From a virus (lineage: Duplodnaviria; Caudoviricetes): a stretch of 64,000 nucleotides of DNA. Where the stretch lies: IMG/VR virus record IMGVR_UViG_3300049182_000044, positions 64,001 through 128,000 of that record. One strand, 5' to 3'. Both the position numbers and the translations under genes were made by a program. The notes beneath the pieces were generated by a model that made no database searches, was not told the DNA's origin, and saw only the letters and a program-made list of their open reading frames with translations. Below, piece by piece: positions 15,748-50,573 of the stretch (positions within the stretch are counted from its first letter, which is position 1; the number at the start of each line of letters is the position of its first letter).

Positions 15748-15823
15748 GGGGCGTTAACTCAGTTGGTAGAGTAGCGGACTCTTAATCCGTTTGTCGTAAG
15801 TTCGATCCTTACACGCCCTACCA
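15748..15823 (+). tRNA. tRNA-Lys(CTT)
   Basis: 76-nt cloverleaf, GCGGA-CT-CTT-AA-TCCGT anticodon arm, TTCGATC T loop, encoded CCA. Confidence 0.95.
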
Positions 15824-15881
15824 AAGTTTCCATAGTAGTGCAGATGCGCGAAAGCGAGTTCTTACTTCTGCATTACTCACC

Positions 15882-15957
15882 GGGTCGTTAGCTCAGTCGG
15901 TAGAGCAGCGGACTTTTAATCCGTTGGTCGCGTGTTCGAGTCACGCACGGCCTACCA
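15882..15957 (+). tRNA. tRNA-Lys(TTT)
   Basis: 76-nt cloverleaf, GCGGA-CT-TTT-AA-TCCGT, encoded CCA. Confidence 0.95.
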
Positions 15958-16111
15958 AGTTTGTCGTAGTAAAGAGTTGTAACTGCCATGTGGGTGGGTA
16001 CCTGCATGTTGTCGTAAGAATGGCCAAAAAGCCGGACCTCAATTTGTGCGAGTCGAAAGGCTCTCACCAGTGTAGACAGTCCTTACAGGGGATCGCAGTT
16101 AGCTGTTACGT

Positions 16112-16187
16112 GGGGCGTTAGCTCAGTTGGGAGAGCAGCGAACTTTTAATCCGTTGGTCGCTGGTTCAAACCCAGCACGCCCTACCA
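16112..16187 (+). tRNA. tRNA-Lys(TTT), variant with A30:C40 mismatch
   Basis: 76-nt cloverleaf, GCGAA-CT-TTT-AA-TCCGT, TTCAAAC T loop, encoded CCA. Confidence 0.85.
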
Positions 16188-19181: not shown

Positions 19182-19189
19182 TACAGAAT

Positions 19190-19580
19190 TTATGGTTGTG
19201 TGCGTAGCGTAATCTACGCGAGACGTTTGCGTGAAGGCATGGCGGACGGGAGTTCGATTCTCCCCACCTCCACCACCAGCACTTTGAACACCCGGTGATG
19301 GCCGGGAGTTTGACCATGTAGGGTAACGGCCCCATAGCAGCCGCTACAGGACCAGTTGCGATACAACTGCAAAGCGCTGTTGATGGGGGTGACCTGGTTT
19401 CGACGGCGTGAGATAGCAAGAACTACAACTCAGCAGGCGATCGCTGACTCTTCGGAGTGAATCGAAGCAAAAATAGTAAATGCAAACGACTCGCATTTCC
19501 TGCAAGCTGCAAACGCCTAATTAAGCGTTTCACTTCAGGCTAAGTGACTACGGGGTCTGTTGACATAGCGCTACGGCGCG
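19190..19580 (+). ncRNA. ssrA: Circularly permuted (two-piece) tmRNA
   Basis: Acceptor piece ends GGAC-GGGAG-TTCGATT-CTCCC-CACCTCC-A-CCA (19275); coding piece starts GGGGGTG (19385), G3:U70 present; tag GCA AAC GAC...TAA at 19482-19520 = ANDSHFLQAANA; outer boundaries approximate. Confidence 0.9.
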
Positions 19581-19589
19581 CCGTCTTCG

Positions 19590-20035
19590 TGTACGTAGTT
19601 AGTCCGGCCACTCCACCTTTCGCCGATAATGACGCGACTGCGCGTGGGTGTCTTAGTCAGCGCGTAAGCGCACCGAAGCCGGACTACCCAGTTTCAAACC
19701 TCCAAGGTCAGAGAGCACTACACAGTGAGTTCGGTCTAAACTTTAACCATTTAGTCACCGAGAGACGATTTCCGTTATAGCAATCTGGATCGGACAACAG
19801 CCTGTGCAGCCAAAGGAGGGCCCAACGTAAAACGTTCTTCATCGAGCGTTTTACGTTGGTGACGGCAAAGCCGTTAAGGTGCGGACATAGAGCTATTGCA
19901 GCTTCAGCGTGGGTACGAACACTAATCGCATGGAGGAACCCCACCGGCGATGAAGTCGTAGGATGTGAAAGCCCGCTACGCTGTCACCAACATTCTCAAA
20001 TCGCGACCTAAGGTGGTCCCGATCATTCAACTTTA
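19590..20035 (+). ncRNA. Candidate large structured ncRNA, copy 2 (boundaries approximate)
   Basis: TAGTCCGGC/GCCGGACTA helix, 16-bp hairpin CCAACGTAAAACGTTC/GAGCGTTTTACGTTGG, core shared with copy 1. Confidence 0.6.
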
Positions 20036-24782: not shown

Positions 24783-25286
24783 ATGCTACGTTTTTACGAG
24801 CCACTGGAAATAGAATACGAACGCGATCACAAGTCGAAGGATCCTATCCTCGGATTCAGCAACGAGCGATACAAATTTCTTTCTAATTTCTATCCGTGTA
24901 CGGTGCGGATGTACGACATTGATTTTCCTTCTAGCGAATATGCCTATATGTGGCATAAGAGCGACGATCTGGATTACAAGAAGTCGATCCTGAACGCTTA
25001 TTCGTCTGGTCAGGCCAAGAAGCTGGGTAACAACAAGCGCCTTGAAGATCTAGGCATACTGCGCAAGGACTGGCCGGATGATCTGGTCCGCATCAAGGTG
25101 ATGTATGAAATACTAAAAGCGAAGTTCAGTGACATCAACCTTTGGGTGATGTTGCAAGCCACAGAGAACCGATACATAGAAGAAACGAATTGGTGGTCTG
25201 ACGTTTTCTGGGGAAGATGTAGAGGTAAAGGTGAAAACCATCTTGGCAGGCTTCAGATGGTGATAAGGCATGAAACACGACGTTAA
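24783..25286 (+). CDS. NADAR (YbiA-like) family protein
   Basis: FLSNFYPC, FPSSEYAY, AKKLG, VMYEILKAKFS, L.AT..RYIEE.NWW.DVFWG, G.N.LGR.QM.IR. Confidence 0.88.
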   Translation: MLRFYEPLEIEYERDHKSKDPILGFSNERYKFLSNFYPCTVRMYDIDFPSSEYAYMWHKSDDLDYKKSILNAYSSGQAKKLGNNKRLEDLGILRKDWPDDLVRIKVMYEILKAKFSDINLWVMLQATENRYIEETNWWSDVFWGRCRGKGENHLGRLQMVIRHETRR

Positions 25287-25303
25287 ATTTTAGGACCATA
25301 ACC

Positions 25304-25759
25304 ATGAAACTCAATGTTGATCTCAAACCGAAAGATGAAAAGATGAATACGACTGCTTCCTCCTGTGACCAAGCCGCTGTTCCTGCAGAAGCTCCGGTCA
25401 CTGAGAACACTCCGACTACTGCACCGGCACCTGTAGCTGAGACTGCCGTCAACGTCACCACCGGTGTCGCATGTCTCGATCCAGGCCATGTGTACGAACT
25501 GGGCGGCGGCAACGTAGTCAAGTTCCTCAAGAAGGTCGATGGCACGCTGATTCATCACGGCACCACGAACGAGGAATGCCTGCAGATGTTGATTCATCGC
25601 ACCAAAGAACTCAACGCCAAATTCCCATGCAAGGAAAACGACCAGGCCATCATTCGCATGGAAGAGGCACTGATGTGGTTCAACGAGCGTACTGCGAAAC
25701 GCACTGCGCAAGGTGTTGAAACCCGCTATCAGAACCATGAGGACGTTCAGCACGGATGA
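25304..25759 (+). CDS. Tad1-like nucleotide-signal sponge (anti-defence), with low-complexity N-terminal extension
   Basis: HGTTNEECLQMLIHR...FPCKENDQAIIRMEEALMWFNER..KR matches Tad1 pattern HG...LLEIVRDR...F..RENA.AL.HVEEALMWMN.R. Confidence 0.7.
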   Translation: MKLNVDLKPKDEKMNTTASSCDQAAVPAEAPVTENTPTTAPAPVAETAVNVTTGVACLDPGHVYELGGGNVVKFLKKVDGTLIHHGTTNEECLQMLIHRTKELNAKFPCKENDQAIIRMEEALMWFNERTAKRTAQGVETRYQNHEDVQHG

Positions 25760-25889
25760 TCAAGCCAAGGACGACGAAGACCCATTATGCCCTACTTGTA
25801 GATGGGTGCTGTTCATCTGCATAGGACTGCTGGTTCTTCTTAGCGTCTCTTGGCCGTTCATAGTGCCGTTCTTGAAAACTGTAAAGTAA
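25737..25889 (+). CDS. 50-aa single-TM peptide
   Basis: Not in ORF track; MRTFSTDDQAKDDEDPLCPTCRWVLFICIGLLVLLSVSWPFIVPFLKTVK*. Confidence 0.45.
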   Translation: MRTFSTDDQAKDDEDPLCPTCRWVLFICIGLLVLLSVSWPFIVPFLKTVK

Positions 25890-25908
25890 GGTCATCGAAT
25901 CGAATCAT

Positions 25909-26556
25909 TGAGTCGTGGTGACACGACATTGTGCATCTGCGTAAAATGCGTTGGTAGTCAATATGGACCGGATGAGGCCAAAAGCCGTTGATCCCGATTC
26001 AGGATGTTTGGCGTAACGACGCAACCGAAAGGCGTATAAAACATTAGCCCTAGCCAGTGCGGTACTTAAGTGGACGGCTGCTAGCGCATAATGGATGAAT
26101 GTTATCAAATTCGGCGAAAGCTAAGCTCTCCGGTAGTAACGTTTCCGGGTCACAGGTACCTCAAACGGTCCATACGCTTCGGGCTTGTCCCTTGCGCACA
26201 CCTACCTAAACAGCCACCGAGCAGTGACTGCTGAGTATGCCAACGCCGAGCCAAGCCTAGAACGATAGTCACAGGTAATCCTTCATAGCGACGACGCCTA
26301 AGGCAGTCAAGCGTAGAAGCGACACCACGGTGAATGTCCGATTAGGAAGGTGTAGAGACTGGTAGGTAACCACCGTAACAGCTGCTTTAACTTATGGGCG
26401 TGTCCCAACTCCGAACGCGACGGAGGTGAAGCAGCAGGTGAAGGCACAGTCCGGGCCATCAACGGTATGCGACACTAATCGAGGCCGGCCTTGTAAATGG
26501 GTCGGTGTACTCGAAATAGCTATTACCGCGTATAGGCGGCGAAAGCCGTGGTGGTG
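25909..26556 (+). mobile_element. Group I intron, Azoarcus/IC3-like
   Basis: Core matches Azoarcus intron: TCAAATTCGGCGAAA.CTAAGC, AACGCCGAGCCAAGC, GAAGGTGTAGAGACT, GGTGAAGGCA.AGTCC; P3 GTTATC/GGTAAC; P9.0 GCCATC/GGTGGT; P9 GCGGC-GAAA-GCCGT; omega-G 26556. The 5' splice site (P1 ATCAT/GTGGT) is less certain. Confidence 0.85.
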
Positions 26557-27054
26557 AGAATACGATTCGACTCTTATTTTATAGACATGAAACGCTCAGA
26601 ACTACAAGCCTTACTACGTGAAGAGTGTAATCCCAACATAGTGCTAGCTACGGTTGGCTCTTGCTGGGAGTGCTCTTCACATAGTCGAAACGGTGGATAC
26701 TACTTCATTTATGAATTTTCTTCTAAGAAGAAAGTTCTGTTGCATCGACTAGCCTACAAGTTAGTCAAAGGAAAGATTCCAAAAGGCCACGTGATTCGGC
26801 ATCGTTGCGATAATCGTGGGTGTTTGAAGCCTAGCCATTTGATTAGCGGAACCGTCGGTGACAACAACCGAGACATGGTAGAACGAGGTAGGCAAGCTCG
26901 TGGCGAACGCAACCGCCACGCTAGGCTGACTGAAGCTCAAGCTCGAGAAATAAAGTATTCCAAGGAATCGAACAAGGTACTGCGTGAACGCTTCAACGTG
27001 CACCGCAATCTTGTGACAGGTATCCGTAACGGTACCTACTGGAAACATATTTAA
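26548..27054 (+). CDS. HNH (His-Me finger) homing-type endonuclease with C-terminal HTH; alternative start 26587
   Basis: CWEC, LHRLAYKL..G.IPKG.VIRHRCDNRGCLKPSHL..GT..DNNRDM..RGR, ARLTEAQAREI. Confidence 0.9.
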   Translation: MVVRIRFDSYFIDMKRSELQALLREECNPNIVLATVGSCWECSSHSRNGGYYFIYEFSSKKKVLLHRLAYKLVKGKIPKGHVIRHRCDNRGCLKPSHLISGTVGDNNRDMVERGRQARGERNRHARLTEAQAREIKYSKESNKVLRERFNVHRNLVTGIRNGTYWKHI

Positions 27055-27077
27055 CAACTACAACTGAAGGAACTCTA

Positions 27078-27467
27078 ATGAGTGCTATCGCTCTCCTGAA
27101 GCAGCTGCGCGGACTTGTTCCCACAGCAGAACTGCAGGGAAAGATTGACCAAGTTATCGCTGACGAAAACGTGGTCGAAAACGTAGGCCGCCATGAAGTT
27201 GGCAAGATCGTACGCTTTGCTCCTGACACCAGAGCACCTTTGTTCGGAACTGAAGCAAAGGTCATGCGCAATCGCGCAACGAGTAACGGGAAGGTGTTGT
27301 ACGATCTGGCTCTCACCGACGGTGACAGCGAAGAAGGATACTACGAGCGCTATCCGATCATCGGAGTTGATGCATGTTTCGTTCGTTCCCTCGACCCGCG
27401 TGAAGAGCAACTCGGTCAAAACGCAGAAACCGAAGCACGAATTGCAGACATTCGTACTGCAGGATAA
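27078..27467 (+). CDS. Hypothetical protein
   Basis: GAAGGA RBS. Confidence 0.65.
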   Translation: MSAIALLKQLRGLVPTAELQGKIDQVIADENVVENVGRHEVGKIVRFAPDTRAPLFGTEAKVMRNRATSNGKVLYDLALTDGDSEEGYYERYPIIGVDACFVRSLDPREEQLGQNAETEARIADIRTAG

Positions 27468-27551
27468 GTTGTAAAGAACAGGCCGTTAATTCGGCCTGTC
27501 CTCACCTTCAAACTGTAAATGGGTCGTGTAGACCAACCACATAGGTGACCC

Positions 27552-27935
27552 ATGTTTGAAAATACTGAAGCCCTCCTGATCGACTTCGAGGCGAAAAAGC
27601 GCCCCATCAATGTCGATCTTATCCGTGAAGCCCTCAATCGTGACCGCGAAGCCGTTATGCGCAATGGCGATGAAGATATCGCCGAGCGTTTCGACAGCCT
27701 CGCCAAGTGCGTCGAAATTCAATGCTCCGAGGGCCACTGGAATCACAACGAGTACATGTACGGAATGGCGAATGGCTTGATCCTCGCCCTCCACATTATG
27801 ACTGGCTCCGTCAACGTCGAGCCTCCCTACCTCGATCGTCCTGAGAAGTGGCATTCTGAATCAGGTGCCGAAGAGCCTACTCCGCCTAACCCTAAGCGCC
27901 GGCTCGGTGACGGTACGGCTCCCCATGTGAAATGA
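27552..27935 (+). CDS. Hypothetical protein
   Basis: AGGTG RBS, follows CTGTAAA. Confidence 0.65.
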   Translation: MFENTEALLIDFEAKKRPINVDLIREALNRDREAVMRNGDEDIAERFDSLAKCVEIQCSEGHWNHNEYMYGMANGLILALHIMTGSVNVEPPYLDRPEKWHSESGAEEPTPPNPKRRLGDGTAPHVK

Positions 27936-39850: not shown

Positions 39851-40264
39851 ATGAATACCTCTTTCAACAATCTGTTTGAACAAGCAACCCGCAAGAACCT
39901 GACTTTCGATTCGCCGAAAGGCCAGCTGACTGTGCAAGATCTGTGGCAGCTTCCGTTGACCAGCCGTATGGGCAAAGCAAATCTGGAAGACATCGCCAAA
40001 GACCTGCATCGCCAGGTGAAGGCGCAAGACGACCAGCCATCCTTCTTCACGGAAGCGAAGCCGGTTGACAACGATGTGGCGCTCAAGCTGAACGTCGTTA
40101 TCTACATCGGCGAAACCCTGAAGAAGGAAAAGGCAGAAGCCGATACCGCTGCGGAACGCAAGGCTCAGAAGCAGAAGATCCTCGAACTGATCGACCGCAA
40201 GCAAGGCGAAGCACTCGAAATGAAGTCCATCGAAGAACTGCAGGCAGAACTCGCCAAACTGTAA
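39851..40264 (+). CDS. Helical conserved phage protein, partner of the upstream gene
   Basis: LFEQATRKNLTFDSPKGQLTVQDLWQLPL...KQKILELI.RKQ..AL...SIEEL. Confidence 0.7.
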   Translation: MNTSFNNLFEQATRKNLTFDSPKGQLTVQDLWQLPLTSRMGKANLEDIAKDLHRQVKAQDDQPSFFTEAKPVDNDVALKLNVVIYIGETLKKEKAEADTAAERKAQKQKILELIDRKQGEALEMKSIEELQAELAKL

Positions 40265-40422
40265 AAGGTTTAGGCTCAGCAAAGCTGAGGGCTTCGGCCA
40301 ACAGGCGGTATCGAAAGAGCCGCCTGCGTAATGAACTGGCACCATCCGGTGCTTTCGCTTCTTGGCGAGCGTCCACGCCAAGCGTTGTTCGGATAACGAA
40401 ACCGATCTATTAGGAGAAAATC

Positions 40423-40977
40423 ATGCAAGCAACCACAACCAACACCGTCATCGGTCACGAGTTCCTGAATCAAATCCAAAACGACGAGGCGATTCTTCGT
40501 ATCGTCAAAGGTCAGATTCCGATCTTCGTGTGCGAGCGCAATGGCAAAGGAGGTTTGTCCTTCAAATGCCCTCATTGCAATCGTAAGCATCACCACAAGG
40601 CTGGTAACGGTTTCCGGAGCGCTCACTGCTTCCGTAAGCCGCCTCTGTTCACGCAAGGATACTACCTTCTGGAAAAGGATGCAGCGGATCAAGTTGTGCC
40701 AGCGGAGAAGCTTCACCGTATGAATCTCAAGTCCTTCCTGGAAGGCTTGAATGGTAAGATGGTGGGGATCGACTTCATTAAGCAAGACGGTAGTGCTCGT
40801 GCACTTACCGGACGGCTCGGAGTCACGGCTCCGCTGAAAGGTGGACAAAATAAGGTCGAAGCTCCTGATCGTCCTTATTTGACAGTCTACGAGGTAGGTA
40901 CTGGCTACCGCACGGTCAACCTGGAGACCACCAGCCGGGTCCGTGCGAATGGCAAGGTCTACGACATTGTAGGCTGA
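40423..40977 (+). CDS. Zn-knuckle plus WYL_2/SH3-like domain protein
   Basis: FKCPHC...H..H..C; C-terminal IDFIKQDGSARALTGRLGV...GYRTVNLET. Confidence 0.55.
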   Translation: MQATTTNTVIGHEFLNQIQNDEAILRIVKGQIPIFVCERNGKGGLSFKCPHCNRKHHHKAGNGFRSAHCFRKPPLFTQGYYLLEKDAADQVVPAEKLHRMNLKSFLEGLNGKMVGIDFIKQDGSARALTGRLGVTAPLKGGQNKVEAPDRPYLTVYEVGTGYRTVNLETTSRVRANGKVYDIVG

Positions 40978-48905: not shown

Positions 48906-50573
48906 ATGCGTATTCTTGGTAATCTCGTATTCGCAGGCCTCGGCCAAGTTCAAAACCTCCGCGTTGAGAACGTCGCCACTGATCCTGTAACCCCGATGGT
49001 CGGCCAAGTCTGGTACAACACTGCTGAAGGCTTCTATAAAGGCTATGACGGCACCACCGTCATCACCTTCGCTTCCGGCGGTAACACCGACCTGATCCTC
49101 GAAGAAGTAGATCGCATCGAAACTGCTGCAGGCCTGTCCGAGACCGGCACGTATGCTCAGCACACCGACACGAACTACATTAACGGCGCCACCAACCTGA
49201 AAGCAGCTGACAAGTTGCTGGATGCACAGCTGAAGACGGCAACCGATGCAGCTGCTACGGCTCAAGGCGCAGCCGATGACGCTCAAGCAGAACTCGACCT
49301 GGTCGAAGCTGCTGCTGGTCTGAACACCGATGGTACGTACTCGGCTCACACCGACACGAACTACATCAACGGCGCTGGCAACCTGAAAGCTGCTGACAAG
49401 CTGCTCGACACGGCTGTTAAGAATGCTGCTGACGCTGCTTCCGGCGCACAGAGCACTGCTGATCTGAAGGTTTCCAAGTCCGGCGACAGCATGACTGGCA
49501 ACCTGGCGATGCAGAACAACAAGGTCATCGGCGTTGCTACTCCGACTGACGCTGGCGACGCTGTCAACAAAGCATACGTTGACGCAATCGCTTCGGGTCT
49601 GACCTGGGAAGCTCCGGTGGACGGCGTTGTTGCTGACCACACTGCAATCGGTACAGCTCTGGTTGCTGGCCAGCGCTTCGCAAACACCACTGACGACAAG
49701 ATCTACACGGTCACCGCAGATGGTGCTGATGGCGCTACCGCAGTCTGGAATGCTGGCGAACTGCTGGTTGACGGCGCTGCCTTCTTCGACAAGTCCGTCG
49801 AAGCTGGTTACGTGTTCAACGGTGCTGAAATCGTTCAGTTCTCCGGCCTCGGTCAAGTGACTGCTGGTATCGGTCTGGTTAAGACCGGTAACGTCATGGA
49901 CATCAACCTGGGTGCTGGTATCGGCCAACTCCCGAGCGATGAAGTCGGTATCGACATCCTCGCAGCTGGTGGTCTGTTCCTGACGGTTGACGGCACTGCT
50001 GCTTCGACTGACTCGGCAGCTCAACTGTCGGTCAAGATCGACGGCTCGACCCTGTCCCGTTCGGGCTCGGGTGTCAAGGTTGCCGATGCCGGTGTTACCG
50101 AAACCCAACTGGCAGCTTCGGTTGCTGGCGCAGGTTTGACTGGTGGCGCTGGTGCAGCTCTGGCTGTTGGCGCTGGCACGGGTATCGTTGTTGACGCTGA
50201 CACGGTTGCGCTCGACCTGACTTACGCTGATGGCCGTTACATCAACGTTGATGGCGACACGATGACCGGCTCGCTGACTCTGGCTGCCGATCCTACGACC
50301 GCTCTGATGGCTGCTACCAAGCAGTACGTTGATTCGGTTACCACCGCACTCGAAGGTTCGACCGTCGTGTACGATGGTTCGGTTGCTTCTGCTTCCCACG
50401 TTGTTACCCACAACATCGGCTCGCAGTTCTGCAACGTCACCGTGGTTGACTCTGCTAACAAGCAGATCATCCCGGACAGCGTCACGTTCGACAGCGCTAA
50501 CCAGCTGACCGTGGCATTCAGCTCCGCCATCACCTGCAAGATCGTGGTGACCGGCAAATACGTCGCTGCTTAA
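48906..50573 (+). CDS. Ala/Gly/Thr-rich fibre-like virion protein
   Basis: Internal duplication of about 60 aa, DAVNKAYVD and AATKQYVD fibre motifs, GIGLVKTG repeats; strongly biased codon use. Confidence 0.75.
   Translation: MRILGNLVFAGLGQVQNLRVENVATDPVTPMVGQVWYNTAEGFYKGYDGTTVITFASGGNTDLILEEVDRIETAAGLSETGTYAQHTDTNYINGATNLKAADKLLDAQLKTATDAAATAQGAADDAQAELDLVEAAAGLNTDGTYSAHTDTNYINGAGNLKAADKLLDTAVKNAADAASGAQSTADLKVSKSGDSMTGNLAMQNNKVIGVATPTDAGDAVNKAYVDAIASGLTWEAPVDGVVADHTAIGTALVAGQRFANTTDDKIYTVTADGADGATAVWNAGELLVDGAAFFDKSVEAGYVFNGAEIVQFSGLGQVTAGIGLVKTGNVMDINLGAGIGQLPSDEVGIDILAAGGLFLTVDGTAASTDSAAQLSVKIDGSTLSRSGSGVKVADAGVTETQLAASVAGAGLTGGAGAALAVGAGTGIVVDADTVALDLTYADGRYINVDGDTMTGSLTLAADPTTALMAATKQYVDSVTTALEGSTVVYDGSVASASHVVTHNIGSQFCNVTVVDSANKQIIPDSVTFDSANQLTVAFSSAITCKIVVTGKYVAA
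49125..49415 (+). repeat. Tandem intragenic duplication (AGL..GTY..HTDTNYINGA.NLKAADKLLD x2)
   Basis: CACACCGACACGAACTACAT and AACCTGAAAGC.GCTGACAAG repeated 180 nt apart. Confidence 0.85.

Follow-up and report, generated by a model that had tools for sequence, protein, structure and literature searches.

The stretch of DNA analysed here (the window, 64,000 nucleotides (nt)) comprises bases 64001-128000 of a 281,566-bp IMG/VR record, rated complete (IMGVR_UViG_3300049182_000044), of a jumbo phage from a soil metagenome. Between a 58-amino-acid (aa) open reading frame (ORF) and a free-standing HNH homing-endonuclease gene lie about 700 nt in which a credible ORF is absent, and window positions 25909-26558 within this spacer are a complete group I intron of subgroup IC3, belonging to the subfamily that splits phage transfer RNA (tRNA) genes. 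The intron interrupts no recognisable gene, and its short flanking exons (mini-exons) form a hairpin that copies the geometry of a tRNA(CAU) anticodon arm. In our view the intron and the HNH gene are probably, though by no means certainly, a selfish cassette residing at an ectopic, non-tRNA mimic of such an arm.

The assignment to IC3 was made with two covariance half-models derived from an aligned set of 15 tRNA-borne phage IC3 introns, one covering P3-P4-P5-P6 (R2) and the other P7-P3′-P8-P7′-P9 (R1). In the 64-kb window, R1 matches 26346-26497 with 42.1 bits (expectation value (E) 6e-9) and R2 matches 26062-26269 with 40.2 bits (E 5e-8). No comparable second match occurs there, the next R1 matches having E-values of 0.39 and 0.6 and R2 having no other. 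The two matches place the catalytic core from P3 to P9, including the guanosine site in P7, in canonical order. A first-pass annotation of the window, made from its letters alone, had described an IC3 core with large peripheral inserts at this place and had proposed a scan with group I models. Core and inserts are both borne out by the custom half-models, whereas the general Rfam model Intron_gpI (RF00028) scores just 19 bits over 26057-26434, below its gathering score of 50 (E 0.04 locally and 0.002 genome-wide). The low Rfam score is due to the large peripheral inserts, which lie in L1, P2, P5, P6, P8 and P9 and each fold independently. Those in P5, P6, P8 and P9 measure about 110, 80, 57 and 60 nt, respectively, and the P2 domain of 160 nt extends about 70 nt beyond anything in the relatives. 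Apart from Intron_gpI, no Rfam family matches the element, the peripheral inserts being without a known family, and no ORF longer than 47 aa is found within the intron on its own strand.

The core strings UCAAAUUCGGCGAAA, CAACGCCGAGCCAAGCC, GAAGGUGUAGAGACU and GGUGAAGGCA-AGUCC are typical of the family and identical to those of the 15 tRNA-borne introns. Several helices differ from those of the relatives by compensatory changes, including P3 (GUUAUC/GGUAAC versus GGUGUC/GGCACC in the relatives), the P5 receptor (GCUAAG/UAUGC versus CCUAAG/UAUGG), a P2 sub-helix (GCGUU/GACGC versus GAGUU/GACUC), and P9.0 (GCCAUC/GGUGGU versus ACCAC/GUGGU). The P2 motif is common to the introns at six viral loci (designated L077, L069, L090, L128, L121 and L097). 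A 15-mer from P4′/P6, CAACGCCGAGCCAAG, recovered more than 117 viral contigs; 60 of these also contain the P7 string, and ARAGORN in intron mode places 43 of the 60 inside tRNA genes. The closest architecture is found at L090, where a phage tRNA(CAU) is split by an intron of 574 nt.

The splice sites are predicted from tRNA-borne relatives. At L090, L019, L109 and L054, the tRNA fixes the junction as CAT|intron...G|AAT, and the tRNA-borne relatives all have their 3′ splice site 3 nt past the 3′ strand of P9.0. From the tRNA-fixed junctions of these four loci, the window intron is therefore predicted to span 25909-26558, with the ligated junction AATCAT|AATACG. P1 would consist of CAU (25906-08) and GUG (25931-33), with a U25908-G25931 pair at the splice site and P2 beginning at 25934, and P10 would join AAU (26559-61) to AUU (25928-30). 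Omega-G is G26558, the third base past P9.0 in GAG. L090 has the identical guide string ATTGTG adjacent to P2 (AAAATTGTGCGC), and L019 and L109 have a similar one (GTTGTGCC). The 5′ splice site that the first-pass annotation set after 25908 is kept, and its comparison of a 5′ exon ending in CAT with the tRNA-Ile exon of Azoarcus holds, since the CAT|intron junction is the same as in tRNA(CAU) introns. Other details had to be revised: the P1 partner GTGGT (25915-19) lies inside the L1 hairpin, 14 nt from P2, and is replaced by ATTGTG (25928-33), and the omega-G proposed at 26556 is 2 nt too early by the 3-nt spacing rule of the relatives. As a result, the 5′ half of the earlier junction AATCAT|AGAATA stands, its 3′ half does not, and the intron measures 650 nt rather than about 648.

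The flanks belong to neither a tRNA nor a coding sequence. Between the intron and its neighbours lie 19 nt on the upstream side, where the ORF stops at 25889, and 28 nt on the downstream side, up to the start of the HNH gene. Neither Rfam, run on the locus, nor ARAGORN at default stringency detects a tRNA or transfer-messenger RNA (tmRNA) in the precursor or any of four spliced variants. Calls made by ARAGORN on the same sequences at 80% stringency were implausible and were rejected, and when the reading frames were checked for an extended ORF across the junction, none was convincing. What the exons do form is a helix of 21 bp, composed of 8 inner pairs, a small internal loop and 13 outer pairs, which encloses the entire intron when 25876-26590 is folded, in the minimum-free-energy and the centroid structure alike, and has about -22 kcal/mol in the ligated exons. 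Its complementarity score of 15.5 compares with 7.5 +/- 1.8 for equal geometry across the window and is reached at 7 of 2744 window positions (0.26%) and in 0 of 2000 shuffles. Duplex energy alone failed to distinguish the exon helix from background (487 of 9015 positions) because the exon flanks are AT-rich relative to the GC-richer genome, whereas the score based on base-pair counts did. With A25903 paired to U26561, the loop is the heptanucleotide AUCAU|AA, split 5+2 by the intron and resembling the CUCAU|AA loop of tRNA-Met/Ile2. The first-pass description therefore holds in that the intron interrupts nothing recognisable, begins about 19 nt past the stop at 25889 and has exons whose hairpin is reminiscent of an anticodon arm with CAU at its end; the pairing reported in that description corresponds to the inner arm, and its extent was understated by the 13 outer pairs.

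Such a helix is known to matter for introns of this class. According to Zaug et al. 1993, as related in a passage of the review PMC3984707, the tRNA introns of Anabaena and Azoarcus require an exon-exon anticodon stem. An exon-exon stem is likewise described as a requirement of the tRNA-type class in a study of engineered Azoarcus ribozymes, in which an 'anticodon stem design' beat other exon contexts both in cis and in trans (PMC3895272). By analogy, the mini-exon helix appears to be the natural equivalent of that design, and the fact that it has been kept in the correct register speaks for an RNA that splices to this day, or did so until recently.

The second component of the proposed cassette is the HNH gene, whose product aligns end to end from M1 with its closest homologue, P0003, at 53% identity. 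A start at GTG 26548 was rejected, as the homologues align end to end from ATG 26587. A Shine-Dalgarno sequence before this ATG is absent in both the unspliced and the ligated sequence, and the 3′ arm of the exon helix stops 3 nt short of it. In its AT-rich phage, the P0003 gene comes directly after a tRNA(CAU) gene. At L134 and L135, the tRNA(CAU) beside a P0003-type HNH gene is split after U33 by a small IC3 intron (R1 73.8 bits), and at L136 a different, intron-less tRNA(CAU) lies between equal flanking sequences. This layout matches collaborative (trans) homing and nuclease-marked exchange boundaries (PMC3984707, PMC2790892). The window locus likewise combines an ORF-less intron with an adjoining free-standing endonuclease gene, 28 nt past the intron, as in collaborative homing. 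The anticodon arm at L136 (TCGA-T-TCATAAT-CGA) agrees with the ligated exons (TCGA-A-TCATAAT-A-CGA) at 14 of 15 aligned positions, with one 1-nt gap, and our guess would be that an arm sequence of this kind is what the HNH enzyme recognises. No homologue of the HNH gene was found at the approximately 117 viral loci with IC3 cores; the link between this HNH and the intron is therefore suggestive and not general.

Comparison of L134 (3533-3852) with L136 (about 700-790) also presents what is one phage in two variants, which carry unrelated tRNA(CAU) genes at one spot upstream of one HNH gene and whose identity picks up again at the tRNA 3′ CCA. The difference looks like a nuclease-associated cassette swap.

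From these features we infer how the element works and how it arrived. The intron, structurally complete and probably self-splicing, has kin that normally follow the CAU anticodon of phage and bacterial tRNA(CAU) (the Azoarcus type). In the phage it would occupy the loop of the 21-bp hairpin made by its own non-coding mini-exons in an intergenic spacer, and the hairpin arm would substitute for the anticodon stem needed by the intron class, because P1 (CAU/GUG) and P10 (AAU/AUU) comprise just 3 bp each. The HNH enzyme would serve as homing partner of the intron in the collaborative or trans style, and the cassette would have reached, or stayed behind at, a non-genic site resembling tRNA(CAU) anticodon-arm DNA. 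With the 650 nt spliced out, a plain hairpin would again precede the HNH gene. The features of the locus are listed in Table 1.

Table 1. Features of the intron locus and its surroundings (window positions)
Feature	Position	Strand	Basis or remark
NADAR-domain protein	24783-25286	+	Pfam E 6.8e-14; directly upstream neighbourhood
phrog_2428 protein, 151 aa	25304-25759	+	N-terminal part Pro/Ala/Thr-rich
58-aa ORF with hydrophobic stretch	25713-25889	+	stop codon 25887-89
Outer 5′ arm of exon helix, CTGTAAAGTAAGG	25879-25891	+	13 bp with 26572-84, 3 of these G-U; holds CTGTAAA and the stop of the 58-aa ORF
Inner 5′ arm of exon helix, TCGAATCG	25895-25902	+	8 perfect pairs with 26563-70; equivalent of anticodon stem
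End of 5′ mini-exon, AAUCAU	25903-25908	+	predicted 5′ splice site follows U25908; CAU 25906-08 pairs with guide
IC3 group I intron, 650 nt	25909-26558	+	covariance-model matches, Rfam 19 bits, domain folds
L1 hairpin, GUCGUG-GUGA-CACGAC	25912-25927	+	minimum-free-energy and centroid folds
Internal guide sequence, ATTGTG	25928-25933	+	abuts P2; AUU = P10 partner, GUG = P1 partner
Enlarged P2 domain	25934-26097	+	AAAATGCGTTGGTAGTC 25943-59, GGCGTAACGACGC 26010-22, GAAA loop 26025-32
P3	GUUAUC 26101-06 with GGUAAC 26365-70	+	encloses P4-P6; covaries with relatives
P4	26110-16 with 26244-50	+	R2 alignment, folds
P5, long extension	between P4 strands	+	11-nt-receptor-like GCUAAG/UAUGC
P6	26256-26346	+	R2 alignment, folds
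P7 5′ strand, GAGACU	26355-60	+	within 26101-26370 P3 domain
P8 with 57-nt insert, J8/7 GGUGAAGGCAC, P7 3′ strand AGUCC (26448-52)	26371-26452	+	R1 alignment, high posterior probability
P9.0 (GCCAUC 26455-60 with GGUGGU 26550-55), P9 insert, GAAA hairpin (26535-48)	26455-26558	+	fold
3′ mini-exon = HNH leader	26559-26586	+	AAUA, inner arm CGATTCGA 26563-70, outer arm TCTTATTTTATAG 26572-84
HNH_3 homing-endonuclease gene, free-standing, 155 aa	26587-27054	+	Pfam HNH_3 E 2.4e-12; PHROG HNH families; alignment to P0003
Orphan ORF, 129 aa	27078-27467	+	preceded by Shine-Dalgarno GAAGGA

Several observations weigh against a mobile intron and nuclease at a mimic of a tRNA arm. Within the intron, the base just after the P7 3′ strand is G, which is A in 15 of 15 relatives, and the tetraloop-receptor motif that the relatives have in P8 is missing. 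A second CAU (25893-95) lies in an alternative 7-bp pairing of 25891-97 with 25917-23 (GUCAUCG/UGGUGAC, U-G at U25895), which excludes the L1 GUGA hairpin and could act as a competing 5′ splice site or folding trap. On the side of the nuclease, the match to the L136 anticodon arm was spotted post hoc, the association of HNH and tRNA(CAU) comes from a single phage lineage (L134-L136), and a homologue with 43% identity lies between Gam and RecT genes with no intron. Furthermore, no intron-less allele, phage relative or close intron relative was found among phage records, viral contigs, 5.8 billion proteins and metagenome contigs, and a search of sequencing runs with the locus returned no RNA run, only the probable source soil DNA run.

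The individual searches for relatives were negative as well. The element is single-copy in the phage genome, blastn of 25000-27600 against the phage collection gave no match, and the exact P4-P5 20-mer occurs in no viral contig. A synteny search with the upstream 151-aa protein led only to an unrelated 42-kb phage with one common domain, and a search of 5.8 billion proteins and of viral contigs yielded nothing homologous to the downstream 129-aa protein. A scan of metagenome contigs with the intron's own P2 17-mer yielded 42 matches, which are attributed to chance because group I features are absent in all of them.

The motif CTGTAAA, noted by the first-pass annotation just upstream of the element, is indeed present at 25879-85, where it makes up the first seven bases of the outer 5′ arm. 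The genome contains 43 copies, commonly after A-rich sequence. In the window there are 15, all on the + strand, versus 6.3 expected on both strands together. Genome-wide, 18 of the 43 fall in the 8% of sequence outside a crude ORF set (non-coding); in 35 cases the next ORF has the same orientation as the motif, and in 15 a start codon follows at a distance of 6-66 nt. CTGTAAA is accordingly a candidate for a promoter or processing signal specific to the phage, and a number of its copies are embedded in hairpins or followed by them.

These properties of CTGTAAA bear on an alternative that we regard as unlikely, albeit as the main rival of the cassette reading, namely that CTGTAAA, mini-exon, intron and HNH gene constitute a domesticated regulatory ribozyme in which HNH translation is controlled jointly by splicing and the helix. 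Transcripts that read through from upstream would contain the outer arm (25879-91), which would mask the bases immediately 5′ of the HNH start, and transcripts starting past CTGTAAA would form the inner stem only, leaving the start region open, a situation likened to the delayed translation of I-TevI in T4. Such control is suggested by the 3 nt that separate the 3′ arm of the helix from ATG 26587, by the lack of a Shine-Dalgarno sequence there, unlike neighbouring genes (GAAGGA before 27078), by the intergenic enrichment and co-orientation of CTGTAAA (18/43, 35/43 and 15/43, as above), and by the fact that one copy makes up the helix 5′ arm. However, the promoter role of CTGTAAA is putative, splicing creates no ribosome-binding site, the Rfam scan reveals no sensor domain, and the helix is present in spliced and unspliced RNA alike, so that splicing alone leaves access to the start codon unchanged. 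A broader version, in which a free-standing, promoter-driven RNA device in an anti-defence neighbourhood either gates HNH expression or frees a trans-acting tRNA(CAU)-arm mimic or intron RNA (for example, a decoy for an anticodon-directed host enzyme), seems to us more doubtful still. The variant concerned solely with an RNA product acting in trans, whether the ligated hairpin as a mimic of the tRNA(CAU) arm or the excised intron, e.g., as a decoy that draws off a nuclease or modification enzyme directed at anticodons, is given very little credence. It would fit the AUCAUAA loop, a near copy of CUCAUAA in tRNA-Met/Ile2, the position of the locus after a NADAR gene and a phrog_2428 protein, and the RNA island of the phage with three tRNA-Lys and a tmRNA; against it, the element has no second copy in the phage and is seen in this phage alone, the peripheral inserts fall in no known family, and the likeness to an anticodon arm is already accounted for by the requirements of the intron together with the hypothesis on the HNH target. 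The first-pass annotation had likewise suggested that the excised or circular intron might be the product, for which no support was found, the evidence pointing to a mobile intron with a free-standing HNH gene.

That the intron is a decaying relic, which came with the HNH gene, lost splicing and now serves as passive spacer sequence, is improbable, only somewhat less so than a role for its RNA in trans. With no gene interrupted, there is no obvious selection for splicing; moreover, an invariant A is now G, the P8 receptor is lost, P1 has just 3 bp, and the element is a singleton without relatives. Yet the core helices are all intact, several of them via compensatory changes, the guide, P10 and omega-G still fit the flanking exons, and a 21-bp helix in tRNA-like register is unlikely to persist by chance. 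The idea that the exons are part of a larger unrecognised gene, either an odd tRNA-like RNA or a spliced coding frame, is largely excluded. Joining 25908|26559 does leave one frame open from 25844 into the HNH ORF, with a TTG at 25850, but about 30 stop-free codons arise by chance in roughly 1 of 4 cases, no Shine-Dalgarno sequence is present, and the HNH homologues begin at the equivalent of ATG 26587; in addition, neither ARAGORN nor Rfam finds a tRNA-like fold, and the gaps between the intron and the ORFs on either side are just 19 and 28 nt.

As for the neighbourhood, every credible local gene is on the + strand, and the stretch 24783-25759 with the NADAR and phrog_2428 proteins may be an anti-defence neighbourhood. 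Genome-wide tRNA and tmRNA calls give three tRNA-Lys and one tmRNA as the only such genes of the phage. They form an RNA island at window positions 15748-16187 and 19183-19611, comprising tRNA-Lys with anticodons CUU, UUU and UUU and a tmRNA in two pieces (permuted) whose tag is ANDSHFLQAANA; the style of the tag and the permuted form hint at a host of alphaproteobacterial type. A 'tRNA-Met with 221-nt intron' called at window 49863-50173 when ARAGORN was run in intron mode on the whole genome is a false positive inside a 555-aa Gly/Ala-rich ORF.

Two further arrangements were observed among the viral contigs. Three loci, L097 (about 1030-1545), L130 (about 1250-1720) and L131 (minus strand, about 250-700), have introns that belong to the P2-motif subfamily of the window intron yet are not in tRNA genes, being found 45-190 nt upstream of ORFs. 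These three introns have in common the 5′ string GAAGGTCGCTAG and also a 3′ flank, G|CRTTACTTAAYGC, which is conserved and forms a small hairpin showing A-T to G-C covariation; their 5′ flanks are unrelated to one another, and their guide region differs from that of the window intron. An exon-exon helix like that of the window was looked for at these three loci and none was found, and their arrangement is not the same as that of the window element. At L102 (8150-8640; IMGVR_UViG_3300013426_000021, about 40258-40748), a group I intron appears to occur naturally in permuted intron-exon order. Downstream of a TATAAT-like box come P5′-P4′-P6-P7-P3′-P8-P7′-P9 ending in GGGAG (R1 36.4 bits, E 1.5e-7), then about 230 nt, the 5′ strands of P2-P3-P4-P5 (CCGTAAATTCGGCGAACGTCTGCGCG), and a terminator-like hairpin. 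The end of the P2-P5 5′ strands is paired with the beginning of the arrangement (CTGCGCAGAC), a contiguous 5′ half is not detected by the R2 half-model, and the P7 string is unusual (GTAACGACT). As a single transcript, such an RNA would have its middle segment circularised.

Among known systems, the window intron is closely comparable to that of the Azoarcus sp. BH72 pre-tRNA-Ile(CAU) and other '5Ug'-type introns (Williams, bioRxiv 10.1101/2020.01.27.920355), with which it shares an IC3 core near identical in P3-P4, P6, P7 and J8/7, a 3-bp P1 (CAU/GUG), a splice site after CAU, a 3′ exon beginning with AA, and dependence on an exon-exon stem. Unlike these, it lies outside a tRNA, its stem consists of 8+13 bp of non-coding flank, and it measures 650 nt with large inserts in L1, P2, P5, P6, P8 and P9, compared with about 205 nt in Azoarcus. 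L090 (IMGVR_UViG_3300045993_000562) resembles it in the guide ATTGTG, the P2 motif, the 3′ end (GAAA hairpin, GTGGT, 3 nt, AAT) and large ORF-less inserts, whereas it splits a normal tRNA, has no homologue of the window HNH in the stretch of the locus examined, and does not align outside the core. Collaborative (trans) homing pairs are exemplified by mobE and the nrdB intron of T4 (PMC2790892) and by F-CphI and the psbA intron of S-PM2 (PMC6083498; reviewed in PMC3984707); those introns interrupt essential protein genes, whereas the window intron interrupts nothing and the target of its HNH is only putative. The c-di-GMP (cyclic diguanylate)-dependent allosteric ribozyme in a 5′ untranslated region of C. 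difficile likewise belongs to group I and lies in non-coding RNA ahead of an ORF (PMC3984707), while the window intron is of another subgroup, has no aptamer, and has no alternative splice that creates a ribosome-binding site. No riboswitch family was matched by Rfam in 25600-26900 at E-values up to 10. The lariat-capping ribozyme GIR1 is a P1-less, group I-like core that forms a 3-nt lariat cap and sits within a twin-ribozyme intron. Both GIR1 and the window element are group I-derived RNAs directly upstream of a homing-endonuclease ORF, although the latter keeps P1, P10, the guide and omega-G and is not nested in a second intron.

If the reading as a mobile intron with its nuclease at a mimic of an anticodon arm is true, the window element would be a natural case of a tRNA-type group I intron that needs only an anticodon-arm-like helix as its host, and not a tRNA. 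By implication, introns of this type that have a homing endonuclease beside them may be able to settle in non-genic hairpins, where current finders overlook them, Rfam giving the window intron 19 bits and methods based on split tRNAs being blind to it. Neither the catalysis nor the mobility would be of a new kind; the element would instead offer a compact natural scaffold for the exon-context requirements of these introns and for the link between HNH and tRNA(CAU). The engineered Azoarcus 'anticodon stem design' (PMC3895272) provides the direct parallel, in that a bare exon-exon helix beside a 3-bp P1 replaces the whole tRNA. That design is man-made, whereas the window element would be its natural instance, in agreement with the conclusion of the engineering work.

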